Positions 2,878-10,844 of a DNA stretch of 64,000 nt are shown here, piece after piece; within the stretch, counting starts at the first letter, position 1, and each line of letters starts with the position of its first letter. The position numbers were made by a program, and so were the translations under genes. The notes under the pieces are model-generated. The model saw only the letters and a program-made list of their open reading frames with translations, was not told the DNA's origin and did not search any database. This stretch comes from Propionivibrio sp. (lineage in GTDB: Bacteria; Pseudomonadota; Gammaproteobacteria; Burkholderiales; Rhodocyclaceae): positions 46,525 to 110,524 of the forward strand of contig JASGIW010000001.1 in assembly GCA_047601695.1 (NCBI GenBank). Direction: 5' to 3'.

Positions 2878-3234
2878 ATGAAGACCTATCGAGCCAGCTG
2901 CCACTGCGGCGCGATTCGTTTCACGTTCAAGGGGCCGGAAAGCATCGAAAACGGCCTGCGCTGCAACTGCTCGATCTGCCGGCGCAAGGGCGCGTTGATG
3001 AGCGGCTTCGTCGTCGCGCCGGATGACATGGTGATCGAGTCGTCCGGCGACGGCTTGGGGACCTACGAATTCGGCAGCGGCGTCGCCAAGCATCATTTCT
3101 GCAAAACCTGCGGCATCTACCCCTTTCACCAGACGATGCGCAAACCCGGCCATTACCGTATCAACCTCGGCTGCGTCGAGGAACTCGATGCGACGCGACT
3201 GCCGTTCGACGTGTTCGACGGCGCGTCGATCTGA
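2878..3234 (+). CDS. GFA/CENP-V family zinc protein
   Basis: CHCG, CNCSIC and HHFCKTCG Cys pattern. Confidence 0.9.
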   Translation: MKTYRASCHCGAIRFTFKGPESIENGLRCNCSICRRKGALMSGFVVAPDDMVIESSGDGLGTYEFGSGVAKHHFCKTCGIYPFHQTMRKPGHYRINLGCVEELDATRLPFDVFDGASI

Positions 3235-4451: not shown

Positions 4452-6375
4452 TTACCAGGAAATTCCCACTCCGGCGCCGACGACGGTGCTCTTGCTGATC
4501 CCGCCGACCGTGGATGCGGAGACCCGTACGGCAACGTTTTCCGCCGCCCGGTACGAAGCGCCCAGGGCAACGGCGGTCATGCTTTGGAAGTTGCCGAGGC
4601 CAAGACCGACGGCGAAGCGTTTGTTCTGATCGACCTGCGGGATGTTGGCCATCGCCGACGTGCCGGCGACGCCGGCGGCAACGCCTTTCAGTTGCCTGAA
4701 ATTGACCGCGTCGAAATCTTCCGTTCCGTCGGCGACGCCGGTGACCTTGACCGGCGCGCCGTTCGTGGCGTTGCTGAAGCGCGCGCCATTGTCGTCGAGC
4801 GTCAGGCTGGTCGAATGCGTGCCGCCGGAAATCGTCGCCTGCTTCTCCGTGACGATCAGCCAGTGCGTGTTGCCGACGCCGTTGGTCAGGGTCAGCGAGG
4901 CGGTGCTTTGATCGACGATGCCGGTGGTGATCTTGCCGTTCTGGTCAACGGTGGCGCCGCTTCCGCCGCTGTTGACGATGGTCATCTGTCCGTTGGTCGA
5001 ACTGGGTGGCGTCGTTCAGGATCGAAGTGCCGGAGGTGACCGTCGTCGAGGCGGAAGTATTCGAGGTATAGACCAGCGTGCCGTTGATGTACATGTTGCC
5101 GTCGACCAGCGTATTGCCCTGCAGGCGGTTGACGTACGTAGCGCCCTCGACATTGGCCTGGCTGGCGGCGTCGCCGGCGATCAGCGCGGGACCGGAGGTG
5201 CCGACGACGTACGGTGTGGCCGTCGAGGTGTAGCTGCCGCCGCCGGCATTGCCGATCGAGGTCGATGTATTGGTCACATTGATGGAACCGCCGCCGACCG
5301 TGCCGTTGATGTGCGTCGCATCGACGGTCAGGGTATTGGCGCCGAACGCCGTTTGCGCCTGCGTGTTGGTCGCCGTGTAGCTGCCGCCGCCGGCGACCGA
5401 CAGGCTGGCGTCGTTGTTGGCGAGCAGCATCGTGCCGTTGCCGCCGTGCGCGGTGACCGTCGTGCTCGTGTTGGCGTTGCCGAGGGTATTGGTGCTGGCG
5501 TAGCCGGCGTTGGTGCCGATGTTGTTGATGGAACTGTTCAGGCTGGTGCTGTTGGCGGCGTTGCCGATGGTGACGGTGCCGGTGCTGGTGCCGATGTTGG
5601 TGGCGGCGGTGCCGCTGGCGTTGATGTTGGCGGTGCCGGCCTGGTTGAGCGTGCCGGTGTTGTTGATCCCGGCCGTCGTGGTCGTACCGGTGACGTCCAG
5701 CGAACCCGTTGCGATATTGCCGCTGTTGGTGATGCTGGACGAATCGATGTGGCCGGTCGATACGGCGTTCGACGTGACCGTGCCGGAAGCGCTGACGTTC
5801 CCGGCGCCGCTGATGTTGCCGGCATTGTTGACGCCCTGGTTGTGGTTTTCGAAGACGCCGCCGATATTCTCCAGACCGCCCAGGCTGGTGATTTTCCCTG
5901 AACTGACCATGCTGCCGCCGGCGAGAACGTTGCCGGAAGTGGTGACGTTGGTGGCCCCGATGGTACCGGCGTTGACGATGCCGGCGTTATTGTTGTTGAT
6001 TCCTCCATAGGTGTGGGTCGTACCGTACAGCGACGTATCTCCGCTGACTGAAAGATCGCCATCGATCCCGGTAATCCCGGTGATCATGGCGCCGCCGGAA
6101 ACGTCCAGACCATCGGTGACGCTCAGGCCGTAATTGATCAGGGAGCCGTTCAGGTCGCCCAGGCTGGCAGCCACGGTGGTCGTTCCGGGACCGTTATAGA
6201 TGATGAACGACCCTACGCTGCCATTGTCGGTATTGATGTTGACCGTCACATCGTTGGCGTCGGAGCCGATATTCGTCTGCGCGACGGCCATGCCGGAGAA
6301 ACAGCCGGCGACCAGCAGCGCGATGAGTTTGAGTTGATGAACGTTCATGTTCTGGTTGGCGCGCTTGGGTTTCAT
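4452..6375 (-). CDS. YadA-family trimeric autotransporter adhesin (about 640 aa; one frameshift near 5005)
   Basis: Signal MKPKRANQNMNVHQLKLIALLVAGCFSGMAVA; Gly/Asn/Thr-rich passenger; neck motif VKVTGVADGTEDFDAVNFRQL; anchor ending GAGVGISW. Removing one G from GGG at 5004-5006 joins the two ORFs (ATSSTNGQMTIVN). Confidence 0.88.
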
Positions 6376-6407: not shown

Positions 6408-6950
6408 TTACATAACGAGTTCTTTTTTGATCGACACGCAGCCGCTGCCGGCCGGCATCAGGAAAATGCGGGCCGGGGTTTCGCTTTCGAGCACGAGAAC
6501 GTCCTTCTGCAGCGAACGGCCCTTCCTGAACTGGGCGAACTGCCTGGCCGCGACGGTGTTGCATTTCTGCGGCCAATAGACGACGGCTTCGTAAACGGCG
6601 CCGCTGCCGTTGGCCTGGTTGGGCGCGAAGCTGGCGCTGGCGTAGGCGGGGGGCGCGTTGGCGGTTTGCGGCTGCACTTCGTAGGAAAAGGACACCAGAC
6701 GTTGGTCGGGCGGCGCGGGCGGGGCGAAGAAGTAGGCGCCGACCTTGGCGTTGGCGCCGATGAACTGGCTGACCTGGTCGATGCGCCCGGCGCAGGCCAG
6801 CACGCCGGCCCTGGACGCCGCCTGGGCGACGGCACCCGGCGCTGGCGACGGTGCGGAATTGGGTGAATTGGCCGGGCTGGGTTCGGCGGCGAGCGCTACG
6901 CCAGCGCAGGCGGCAAGGATGATGCACAACGCGACGCGTCGGGCGGTCAT
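6408..6950 (-). CDS. Exported hypothetical protein immediately upstream of the adhesin
   Basis: GGAG RBS; signal MTARRVALCIILAACAGVALA; Pro/Ser/Ala linker; globular domain with three Cys; stop 32 bp before the adhesin start. Confidence 0.75.
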   Translation of the reverse strand: MTARRVALCIILAACAGVALAAEPSPANSPNSAPSPAPGAVAQAASRAGVLACAGRIDQVSQFIGANAKVGAYFFAPPAPPDQRLVSFSYEVQPQTANAPPAYASASFAPNQANGSGAVYEAVVYWPQKCNTVAARQFAQFRKGRSLQKDVLVLESETPARIFLMPAGSGCVSIKKELVM

Positions 6951-7060
6951 GTCTCCCGACGGGTGCGTCAATGGATATGGCGATCGTTGCGGCATGCGTC
7001 CAGTCCGAATCTTCTGTTGGATAGCGTCGGCAAATGGTAGTCATCGAGCGCCGGTCGAAA

Positions 7061-7116
7061 CTGTCGCCTACTGTTGCCCGCTGTCGGTCGCATGCCGAGG
7101 CTGTCAAACGCTGTCA
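7061..7116. promoter_or_regulatory. Array of CTGT(C/T) direct repeats at exact 10-bp phase (candidate OmpR/PhoB-family boxes)
   Basis: CTGTC 7061, CTGTT 7071, CTGTC 7081, CTGTCA 7101, CTGTCA 7111, in the divergent intergenic region. Confidence 0.6.
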
Positions 7117-7157
7117 ATTGCTTGCCGCCGCTTTCGCTTGGGCTATATTCCGCGCCT

Positions 7158-9239
7158 ATGCGCCGATATTTCCTCCATGAACACCGGGATGCCGGATACG
7201 TTGAACGCGTTGAATCCGACCGACGCGCGCGCTGTTTCGGGCATCGTCTCCTTGCCTTCCTGCTGCCGCTGCTTTGCCTCTTCTGCGCCGCTTGCGGCCC
7301 GGCCCCGCTGTCGGGATCGTCGGGCGGCAGCGGCGCGGTTGCCGTGCGCGCCGTCGACGGCCGTGCTGGTCCCGGAAATCGCGGTACTGGTCAACGAAGG
7401 AGGCGGCGAGACCATCGAATCCGTGGCCGGCACTTCGGCCAGCCGGTTTCGCCCGCTGGGCACTCCCCTCAGCGCCGGCTACACGCGCAAGGCGCACTGG
7501 CTGCGGGTTTCGTTGCGGCGGGAGGCGGCGACTCCCTTGCGCTGGCTGCTGGAACTCGGCCCCGGCTACCTGGACGACGTGCGGCTGTATACGCCGGATG
7601 CCGGCGCGCCGAACGGTTTCCGCAAGCGTCTGGCCGGCGACCGCCTGCCGTTCGCGGCGCGCGAGGTGGCGCACCGGCTGTTCGTTTTCCTTGTCGATCT
7701 GCCCGATGGGAACGCGCCCTGCACGCTCTATCTGCGCCTGCAATCGACCAGCACCCTGATGGCGCACCTGACGTTCTGGGAACTCCGCGCCTTCGCGACG
7801 GCGACGCAGGGCGAATACCTGGTCCTCGGCGTTCTCCTCGGCGCTTTGTGCCTGATGCTGCTTTACTCGGCGACGTATTGGTATTTCCTGCGCGAACGCT
7901 ATCTGCTGCTGTTCGTCGGCCTCGTGCTGGCTATGCTGATCGCGCATTTCGGCACCAACGGCCTGGCTGAGCAGTTCCTGTTCCGGCGCATCCGGCGCTG
8001 GCCAACCTGTTCGCGCCGGTGGGGGCGTGCCTGTTGATACTTTTCGACTTCTGGTTCTTCCTCGACTTCCTCAAGGTCTGGCAACGCCATCCCTGGCTCA
8101 GCAAGTTCTACGTCGCCACCATGGCGCTCTCGGTCGTCGCGCTGCCCGGGATGGTCTTCGGCTACTACGTCGAGATCGCGCCGGTGCTGATGGCGTGTTC
8201 GCTGGTGAGCCTGCCGTTCTGCCTGGCGGTCGCCTGGCGCTCGATCGGCCTGGATATCCTCGGCAGCCGCTGGGTCGCCTCGGCCTATGCCTGGTATTGC
8301 CTGGTGGTCGCCTTCAACCTGCTGTCGGTGCTCGGCTTTGTTCTGGGCCACACGTTCACGATCTACGGCTGGCAGTACGGCGCGCCGATCTACGTGGTAT
8401 TCCTGATGTCGGGCGTGCTGACGCGCGTGCGCGAAATGGAGCGCCGCCGCGACCAGGCGATCGCCAGTTCGCTCGCCGCCGAAGCGAAGGCCGAGGTCGC
8501 CCACGCGCAACGGGAAGAAAAGAGCCGCTTCCTCTCGCTGATGACGCATGAGCTGAAAACGCCGCTCGCCGCGATCGACGCCGCCGTGCAGGCGCTCGGC
8601 TATGCGTCGGAACGGGAAGATCTGGCCGCCACGCGCCGCCACCAGCGCATCCGCGAAGCGGTGGCGCGCCTCAACATGCTGCTGGAGGATTCGCTGGCCG
8701 TCGTCCGCGATGAAGCGGCATCGAACCGGCCGTTCCATTTCCGCCGGAACCGGGTCGTCATGGAGGAACTGCTGCGTTCGCTCCGCGCGGCGTATTCGAC
8801 TTCCGGGTCCGATGGCGTCGGCACCGCCCGCGTTCGTTTCGAAGCGGTGCCGAACGTCGAGTTCCGTGGTGACGGCACGCTCTTGCGCCTGGCGCTCAGC
8901 AATCTGCTGGACAATGCGCTCAAGTACGGAATGGCCGGCCATGCGGTGACCGTGTCGGTTCGCGAACGGCCGCATCTCGATCAACCCGGCATCGCCTTCG
9001 AGGTCACGAGCGCTTTTGCCGGAGCAATCGATGAGGACTGCGCGGTCTGGTTCGAAAAATTCTGGCGCGGGAAGGAGCACGCGACGATCGAAGGTGTCGG
9101 CCTGGGTCTCTACCTGGTTCGTTCGATCGCCGAGGCGCATGGCGGTGACGCATGGTGCTGCGCGCGCAAGGACCAGAGCGGGCTCGTTCCGGCGTGGCTG
9201 GTGGCGACGCTCTGGATAAGAGGACTGGTTGCAGTATGA
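7158..9239 (+). CDS. 7TM-DISM sensor histidine kinase (frameshifts near 7360 and 7983)
   Basis: DISMED2-like HWLRV...WLLEL...LDDVRLY...LYLRLQS; about 7 hydrophobic segments; H-box MTHELKTPL; NLLDNALKY; GVGLGLY. +1 G at 7359-7360 and -1 C near 7983 restore one frame. Confidence 0.85.
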
Positions 9240-9381
9240 GAAGAATCGCCTCGAACTGCTGCTCTCACGCCTGCGCCGGAAATTCCGCGAGACCAATGAA
9301 TTGTCGATCAATCCGGTCAAGCCCGTACGCAACGAGGGATATCAGCTGACGATCTTTTTACGGGCGGACGACAGCCGTTGA
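9220..9381 (+). pseudogene. C-terminal fragment of an OmpR/PhoB-type winged-helix response regulator
   Basis: Not in the ORF track. Translates EDWLQYEKNRLELLLSRLRRKFRETNELSINPVKPVRNEGYQLTIFLRADDSR*, matching the recognition helix (SRLRRK) and wing (VRxxGY). In-frame TAA at 9217-9219; no receiver domain. Confidence 0.7.
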
Positions 9382-9487: not shown

Positions 9488-10186
9488 TCACTGCCTCGGG
9501 ATGGTGATTCTCTCCGCGCGTTCCAGGGCATCAAAGAAATCCGAAAGCCGCCGGCCGGGCAGATCAGGGAAGGTATCCTCGCTGACCGTCAGTTGCCCGA
9601 TGCGGTCGACGCGAAAGTGCCGGAAGCCGTCGCGCAACAGACACCAGCCGATGAGCGTCCAGTGTCTTCCCCAGAAGAAGAGTCCGAGCGGCCAGAGTGT
9701 GCGTTCGGACATTTCGCCGTCTTCACGCGTGTAGGCCATGGTGACGATCCGGCGTTGGCGTACGGCGCGGCGCAGTTCGGTGAGGTGGCCCGGCCGCTCG
9801 TTCTGCGGCGGCGGGATGAACAGTTGCGCGCGTTGCGCTTCGCGGCGCAGCAGGTCGGGCAGGACGTTGTGGATCTTGGCCAGCGCGGCGGTCGCGGCCT
9901 GCGCGAGGTCAGCGTCGCCCCAGGCCTGCACCATGCGCGAGCCGACGAGCAGCGCTTCGAGTTCGGCCGGATCGAAGAGCAGCGGTGGGACGTCCAGCCG
10001 GTAGCGCAGTCGGTAGCCGACGCCGGCCTCGCCCTCGATCGGCACGCCGGACAGCGTCAGATCGTGGATGTCGCGGTAGAGCGTGCGCAACGAGACTTGC
10101 AGCTGCTCGGCGAGCCAGCCGCCCGTTGCCAGCCGCTTGCTGCGCAGGAGTTCGACCAGGCGAAAGAGGCGATCGGCACGGCGCAT
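9488..10186 (-). CDS. yafY: YafY-family HTH-WYL transcriptional regulator
   Basis: MRRADRLF...VSLRTLYRDI...GEAGVGY; WYL domain WTLIGWCLLRDGFRHFRVDRI. Confidence 0.92.
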   Translation of the reverse strand: MRRADRLFRLVELLRSKRLATGGWLAEQLQVSLRTLYRDIHDLTLSGVPIEGEAGVGYRLRYRLDVPPLLFDPAELEALLVGSRMVQAWGDADLAQAATAALAKIHNVLPDLLRREAQRAQLFIPPPQNERPGHLTELRRAVRQRRIVTMAYTREDGEMSERTLWPLGLFFWGRHWTLIGWCLLRDGFRHFRVDRIGQLTVSEDTFPDLPGRRLSDFFDALERAERITIPRQ

Positions 10187-10220
10187 GGGGTGTGTATTCG
10201 AGAGAAGCGAGCACCCGATT

Positions 10221-10844
10221 CTACGCACTGACAGCCAGCATGAGGGCGTCGAAATACGCCCGGCGACCGGTTTTGAAAAGTCCGTACCAAGCATCGAGTA
10301 CGGCCGGTGGATAGAGATCCAGCCGGCGGAAGATGTGCTGTGCGAAGTCAACCGGCGCGGTACCGGAGGCGGTGATGACGTCGTCGTCAGTGACGGCGGG
10401 AACCTCTTCGTAAAGCGCCAGGCCGTGGTATCCGGTCGCTGCCAGATATTCGCGCGCATTGCTGGTATGGCGTCGCTTATCGAGCAGACCGCCGCGAGCC
10501 AAGGCGGCGGTCGCCGCGCAGATGGCGGCGATCGGTACGCCGGCGGCGATAAATGTCCGTACGGTTGCGATGGCCTCCGTGTTTCCGCCCGACTCCCAAA
10601 CGTCGCCGCCGGGCAGGATCAGCATCGCGGTCTCGGCGGAGTTGATCTCCGCGAGCGTCAGGTCGGGGACGATGCGGATACCACCCATCGTTTGCACGAC
10701 GTCGGGTCGCGCGGCCACGGTACGCACCCGGTAGCGGCCAGGGATGCGCTGGAACCGAGGGTTGTTGATCGCGGCGACGGCGTGGCCGGCCTCCCAGTCG
10801 GAGAGTCCATCGAAGACGAAAAGGAGAACATCCAGCGGTCTCAT
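10221..10844 (-). CDS. DJ-1/PfpI family protein
   Basis: DWEAG acidic residue, LILPGG, nucleophile AAICAA. Confidence 0.9.
   Translation of the reverse strand: MRPLDVLLFVFDGLSDWEAGHAVAAINNPRFQRIPGRYRVRTVAARPDVVQTMGGIRIVPDLTLAEINSAETAMLILPGGDVWESGGNTEAIATVRTFIAAGVPIAAICAATAALARGGLLDKRRHTSNAREYLAATGYHGLALYEEVPAVTDDDVITASGTAPVDFAQHIFRRLDLYPPAVLDAWYGLFKTGRRAYFDALMLAVSA

Follow-up and report, generated by a model that had tools for sequence, protein, structure and literature searches.

The window analysed here, i.e., the whole stretch of 64,000 nucleotides from Propionivibrio sp. (GCA_047601695.1), contains a module of four genes in divergent orientation between positions 4452 and 9381. On the forward strand, a sensor kinase gene (7158-9239) with matches to the 7TMR-DISMED2, 7TM, HisKA, and HATPase_c domains is broken by frameshifts near 7350 and near 7983. 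It is followed by the tail of an OmpR-type response regulator (9220-9381), recognizable by its recognition helix and wing and by a weak Trans_reg_C match. On the reverse strand, the first gene of the adhesin operon (6408-6995) is intact and encodes a secreted partner protein of 195 aa with conserved cysteines. It is followed by the gene of a trimeric autotransporter adhesin with a YadA stalk and anchor (4452-6375), which has one frameshift near 5001. As assembled, three of the four genes are damaged (kinase, regulator, and adhesin), with the partner gene and the putative operator between the two operons being intact. The frameshift sites are not long homopolymers.

In the regulator, positions 9220-9369 are 78% identical to residues 182-231 of an intact ortholog (P0121). 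A tail of 53 codons remains, without the receiver domain and the beginning of the DNA-binding domain. Kinase codon ~684 is fused here to regulator codon 182, from which a deletion of ~586 bp is deduced. A WYL/HTH_11 (PafC-like) regulator gene, which appears to be unrelated, lies directly downstream of the truncated regulator (9488-10300, reverse strand).

No Pfam or NCBIfam family matched the partner protein. Its start codon, the ATG at 6995 (MPQR...), is conserved in all orthologs and is the sole in-frame start in one of them (L002). A preliminary description of this DNA had placed the repeats treated below 110-165 bp upstream of the partner gene, taking 6950 as its start; with the conserved start at 6995, this distance has to be corrected to 66-121 bp. 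The partner protein represents a large unannotated family, with 429 matches in Betaproteobacteria, Deltaproteobacteria, Elusimicrobia, Planctomycetes, and others, where Cys53, Cys130, and Cys171 are invariant, Cys116 is near-invariant, and the C-terminus bears a FLMPAGxGC motif. Where checked, the partner gene is usually followed by that of a YadA-anchor protein.

The repeat array and its conservation

Between the partner and kinase genes, the forward strand reads, from position 7060, as the decamers aCTGTCgcct aCTGTTgccc gCTGTCggtc gCATGCcgag gCTGTCaaac gCTGTCaatt. CTGTY thus starts at 7061, 7071, 7081, 7101, and 7111, with a period of 10 bp, and direct reading of the sequence bears out these five starts as they had been listed in the preliminary description. 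The first three boxes (7061-7085; CTGTC at 7061, CTGTT at 7071, and CTGTC at 7081) are weaker half-sites, in which CTGT alone is invariant among orthologs. Boxes 5 and 6 (7101-7118) form a strong, near-invariant direct-repeat pair, CTGTCAAA-CG-CTGTCAAT, which is presumed to be a high-affinity dimer site. The slot at 7091 had been taken as empty, but it contains CATGC (7091-7095), and both C7091 and C7095, at phases 0 and 4, are kept by all 8 orthologs (consensus C[T/A]n[G/T]C). It is better described as a degenerate half-site, presumably the weak partner of box 3 within a 20-bp dimer site. Two further degenerate slots (7121-7140), with CTTGC at 7121 and CTTTC at 7131, extend the array to 8 phased decamers in total (7061-7140) and overlap the -35 element and the spacer of the predicted kinase promoter.

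Such a cluster is rare in this genome. CTGTY occurs at a background of ~1.55 per kb per strand, and a single site in 4.54 Mb has at least 3 of 6 slots filled at a period of 10, namely the present one, with 5 filled. At periods of 9, 11, and 12, a maximum of 3 filled CTGTY slots was found in the same genome. The motif GCTGTCAA-NN-GCTGTCAA has a single occurrence genome-wide, and a genome search for further sites of the strong pair, which could have formed a regulon, found none with up to 1 mismatch, except a weak one at C4:1192490. The uniqueness of the strong pair fits a locus-specific regulator and not a global one.

No homolog of the partner protein was found in 60 relatives, 36 of which are species of the same genus, so no orthologous spacer was available from close relatives. 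The spacers compared here come from metagenome contigs encoding the closest relatives of the partner (70-86% identity). Together with the window, they make eight distinct spacers (window, L002, L003, L005, L087, L100, L102, which is the same as L099, and L103), although the closer orthologs are interrelated and the spacers are not fully independent samples. The gene order, regulator <- kinase <- spacer -> partner -> adhesin, is kept in the orthologous loci. Intact kinases of 640-690 aa are found in L002 and L003, and the L005 contig stops within the kinase gene.

The overall identity of these spacers to the window is only 55-80%, with flanking bases that vary, while CTGT is kept in all five slots, in 24 of 24 instances for boxes 1-3 and 16 of 16 for boxes 5-6. 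The latter are invariant as CTGTCAAA-NN-CTGTCAAT in the 8 orthologs, save one base in L103. Slots 7 and 8 follow the pattern CTT[G/T]C with an invariant CT (16 of 16), slot 8 being CTGTCAC in L002, and the -35 hexamer by itself could account for the conservation of slot 7. All eight slots (7061-7131) keep the phase-0 C without exception, which indicates that those at 7091, 7121, and 7131 are degenerate boxes. When column identity is autocorrelated, peaks appear at lags of 10, 20, and 30. Judged from this pattern of conservation, the array is a classical phylogenetic footprint, with a period of 10 bp against the 3 bp of a coding sequence. The check that the preliminary description had named, conservation of the repeats in orthologous spacers, therefore came out in its favor, since they are conserved in phase in 8 spacers.

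Two other explanations bear on these observations. The motif was picked after the sequence had been seen and its core has just 4-5 bases, so that a functionless chance cluster comes to mind. However, this is the sole such array in the genome, and its phase is kept in 8 spacers while the intervening bases diverge; chance clustering is effectively refuted by this conservation, and we give it almost no weight. The repeats could also act in RNA, as a protein-binding or structural element in the 5'-UTR of the adhesin mRNA, or be coding remnants, and an ORF starting from TTG at 7074 formally crosses the array. Nevertheless, the 10-nt period of conservation is not the 3-nt one, the conserved kinase start is located downstream, at 7158, the folding of the region is no better than that of shuffled sequences on either strand (z = +0.8 and +2.1), and no Rfam match was found for it. 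A role in RNA or a coding origin is consequently highly improbable.

Matches to the repeats in other collections were also inspected. Among 400 genomes of the order, the exact pattern CTGTCAAANNCTGTCAAT was matched once, in L094, where it falls at the end of a SecA-like ORF. It was rejected because ~0.65 matches are expected by chance and the neighboring genes are unrelated. In JGI metagenomes, the 20-base pattern retrieved the true ortholog L099 and one other match (L098), which is AT-rich, at chance level, and in an unrelated context, being also discarded.

One of the orthologous loci, L087, has a DDE_Tnp_1_4 transposase (591-2003) in place of kinase residues ~60-408, with the box array intact. 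Here the same two-component system appears to have been inactivated independently, and, beside the damage observed in the window, its loss seems to recur.

Promoters on both sides of the array

A promoter scan of positions 6900-7250 returned 7122-7149 as the sole promoter-like site, with 0.1 expected in shuffles. It is a predicted sigma-70-like promoter of the kinase and regulator genes on the forward strand, TTGCCG (-35)-N16-TATATT (-10). The sequence GGCTATATTCCGC..CTATG is conserved in orthologs, and the kinase gene calls in L003 and L005 begin at the ATG of this sequence, in agreement with the ATG at 7158 in the window. This codon lies 8 nt past the -10 element and lacks a Shine-Dalgarno sequence, and no further in-frame start precedes the signal peptide. 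The short distance and the lack of a Shine-Dalgarno sequence suggest that the kinase-regulator mRNA is probably leaderless. The same arrangement is seen in the window, L003, L005, and the more distant loci L021 and L104, where the kinase ATG falls 6-8 nt after a conserved -10 (TATATT or CATAAT) with no Shine-Dalgarno sequence.

The strong pair is tightly placed in relation to this promoter. Box 6 ends 3 bp ahead of the predicted -35 and 25 bp ahead of the -10, so the putative operator adjoins the -35 of the predicted kinase promoter at 7122-7149, and its slots 7 and 8 overlap it. Boxes 5-6 are separated from the predicted -10 by a fixed distance of 33 bp, which is kept at 33-34 bp in L021 and L104. 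Counting from a predicted transcription start near 7157, they would lie at about -56 to -39. Since the strongest and most deeply conserved boxes are those at a fixed distance from the kinase -10, autoregulation is expected to come first.

On the adhesin side, the hexamer ATGGTA (7034-7039; TACCAT on the reverse strand) is near-invariant in orthologs and is a candidate -10 for the partner and adhesin promoter. Were TACCAT this -10, box 1 would be set beside its -35 position, but the distance from ATGGTA to box 1 is 6 bp shorter in L103, and because of this shift it is held as a candidate only. The consensus promoter scan of 6900-7250 found no site on the reverse strand and did not pick up TACCAT. 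The preliminary description had the array upstream of the adhesin operon; it is indeed located between both operons, but its strongest boxes lie beside the divergent, predicted kinase and regulator promoter.

The regulator family and the distribution of the motif

Tandem direct repeats at 10-11 bp are the textbook sites of OmpR/PhoB regulators, and the array consists of tandem short half-sites with this spacing. The intact ortholog P0121 has the Response_reg and Trans_reg_C domains and resembles OmpR/PhoB-family structures in the PDB (RegX3, BasR, PhoP, and others; E about 1e-16). Its best-scoring NCBIfam model is PhoB (TIGR02154), with 102.3 bits for a cut-off of 296.2. It scored 75.6 bits for the OmpR equivalog (cut-off 331) and 60 bits for the TorR equivalog (NF008034; cut-off 275), and P0121 reached no NCBIfam equivalog cut-off. 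In its DNA-binding domain, it comes nearest to atypical, HP1043-like regulators, the PhoB type being remote (E about 0.1). Regulators of 232-233 aa with both domains are intact in L003 (233 aa) and L104, the window keeping the equivalent of residues 182-231.

PhoB itself had been put forward as an alternative binder in the preliminary description, and the boxes could then be Pho boxes that bring the adhesin locus into the phosphate-starvation regulon. The core of the Pho box is CTGTCA, identical to that of the array. The genome encodes a true PhoB (C2:1234353-1235027; 354.9 bits against a cut-off of 296), which is the closest paralog of the lost regulator in this genome, yet with only 31% identity to P0121; in the absence of the cognate regulator, this PhoB would be the likeliest protein to cross-bind. 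A Pho box is formed by 7-bp CTGTCAT repeats with 4 A/T-rich bp between them, replacing the -35 at ~10 bp upstream of the -10. The Pho box of this genome itself was found ~60 bp upstream of phoB (C2, about 1235040-1235100), reading TTGTCAT-TAAT-CTGTAAT-CGTT-TCTTAAT; its period is 11 bp and its spacers are rich in A/T. In all orthologs, the array, in contrast, keeps to a period of exactly 10 bp and has spacers rich in G/C, which makes PhoB unlikely as its binder. Moreover, it lies upstream of a recognizable -35 (TTGCCG) and not in its place, with the last strong box ending well before the -10. The regulator of the locus is no PhoB equivalog and has a DNA-binding domain remote from that type, and the motif co-occurs with this specific non-PhoB family. 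Control by PhoB is thus very unlikely, though some cross-talk may occur.

The distribution of the motif in more distant loci points to the neighboring regulator. In 80 such loci with partner homologs, the CTGT phasing was absent from nearly all, the exception being L021, and no array was found in partner-adhesin loci that have a DUF900 hydrolase as neighbor and lack the two-component system. L021 is a Sulfuricella MAG carrying a related two-component system (regulator 50% and kinase 41% identical), in which CTGTCAAAGGCTGTTAAC is found exactly 33 bp before the CATAAT -10, with the ATG 7 nt after the latter. The proximal pair alone is present there, which makes the control of the adhesin through the distal boxes less certain than the autoregulation. 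In L104, whose regulator is 63% identical, CTGTCCGTTG is present in two copies, 34 bp ahead of TATATT, which the ATG follows after 6 nt, and additional phased CTGnC boxes extend toward the partner gene. L105 encodes a regulator with 47% identity and no adhesin, and CTGTCATTTGCTGTCG lies between a PEP-CTERM gene and the kinase gene. For comparison, CTGTC-N5-CTGTY pairs have a background of 0.001-0.007 per kb. All these regulators share with the tail in the window the pattern EKNRLEL..(S/T)RLR.K ... NPIKS.R..GY.LT, corresponding to the recognition helix and wing.

In L105, the divergent upstream neighbors of the 7TMR-DISM kinase are a 52-aa ORF and then the gene of the PEP-CTERM protein, and the CTGTC-N5-CTGTC boxes (3040-3095) are ~250 bp upstream of this last gene. 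Judging from this layout, the regulator family may control surface proteins that differ from lineage to lineage.

Since the repeats are found beside distant orthologs of the regulator and are absent where the two-component system is lacking, the boxes track the regulator. The proposal of the preliminary description, that they are cooperative sites for the regulator whose tail survives at 9220-9381, has good comparative support in the phasing in 8 spacers, the recurrence at distant orthologs, and the absence without a two-component system. Phased direct repeats are not confined to the OmpR family of regulators, and a protein encoded outside the locus, such as another winged-helix or ToxR-like factor, could bind the array while the neighboring regulator acts elsewhere. 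We consider this unlikely, as the repeats accompany regulator orthologs in four independently diverged locus types, these orthologs conserve the EKNRLEL..(S/T)RLR.K recognition helix, and the motif pair is found nowhere else in the genome.

A putative operator and its relation to known systems

We suggest that the array is most likely the operator of a dedicated two-component system, made of tandem 20-bp sites for dimers of an OmpR/PhoB-family regulator. The regulator encoded downstream of the 7TMR-DISM kinase would bind as head-to-tail dimers, one per 20 bp, at three or possibly four contiguous sites, comprising boxes 1-2, box 3 with slot 4, boxes 5-6, and perhaps slots 7-8. The CTGTCAAA-NN-CTGTCAAT pair, just upstream of the kinase -35, would nucleate binding, and its occupancy would lead to positive autoregulation of the probably leaderless kinase-regulator mRNA. 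As the phosphorylated regulator rises, the weaker boxes (7061-7095) may be filled cooperatively, reaching the poor -35 region of the divergent partner and adhesin promoter, which would then be switched on.

A broader reading, which we find plausible but hold somewhat short of an even chance, takes the locus as an undescribed, horizontally scattered surface-sensing module. In this module, a leaderless two-component system would autoregulate through the high-affinity CTGTCAAA pair and, as the signal rises, switch on the genes of the cysteine-containing partner and the adhesin through the weaker boxes, and it would have been inactivated repeatedly, by a deletion and frameshifts in the window and by an insertion sequence in L087. 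With the regulator deleted and the kinase and adhesin genes frameshifted, the operator is probably vestigial in this genome, a still-intact relic without its cognate binder.

If the proposed operator is real, it gives an uncharacterized two-component system a defined binding site (CTGTC direct repeats with a 10-bp period) and a circuit. This system adjoins a trimeric adhesin and a widespread unannotated secreted partner in several environmental Betaproteobacteria. It would also allow the prediction of regulons for this regulator family in metagenomes, and would be a simple case of a single operator with graded site strength serving two divergent promoters. No new principle is revealed by it, since switches of this kind are common in bacteria. 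In the present genome, the module is decaying, and its operator has probably been left an orphan.

Among the systems that can be compared, the trimeric autotransporter adhesin cluster of B. cenocepacia (BCAM0218-0228) has adhesin genes beside sensor kinases and response regulators, which were proposed as their controllers (PMC3404963). No operator is defined in that cluster, and the present module is set apart by its small secreted partner and 7TMR-DISM sensor. The Pho box is similar to the array in its half-site core, its direct repeats, and the family of its regulator, but differs by the 11-bp period, the A/T-rich spacers, and its location in the place of the -35.

The OmpR sites at ompF and ompC (F1-F2-F3 and C1-C2-C3) are occupied in a hierarchical and cooperative manner. 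Like the array as read here, they are contiguous 20-bp dimer sites with unequal 10-bp half-sites, the last of which stops shortly before the -35. On the other hand, their half-sites are of the GTTACA type instead of CTGTC, the regulator of the present locus is far from the OmpR equivalog by the score given above, and the array, unlike those sites, would serve two divergent promoters.

The tor boxes are found in a divergent spacer shared with torR, the gene of their own regulator, and TorR autoregulates through the distal boxes. They are decamer direct repeats of CTGTTCATAT, with several boxes including a degenerate one of low affinity, and are bound by TorR, a member of the OmpR/PhoB family (PMC9239176). 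The tor boxes of E. coli and Salmonella therefore resemble the array in having decamer repeats that open with CTGT and a degenerate box among them. Unlike in the TorR system, the sensor associated with the array is a 7TMR-DISM kinase, the regulator is not a TorR equivalog, and the targets would be the kinase-regulator and adhesin operons and not torCAD. Furthermore, the tor boxes are four, whereas the array has five strong and three weak boxes, and the regulator here is predicted to be co-transcribed with its kinase.
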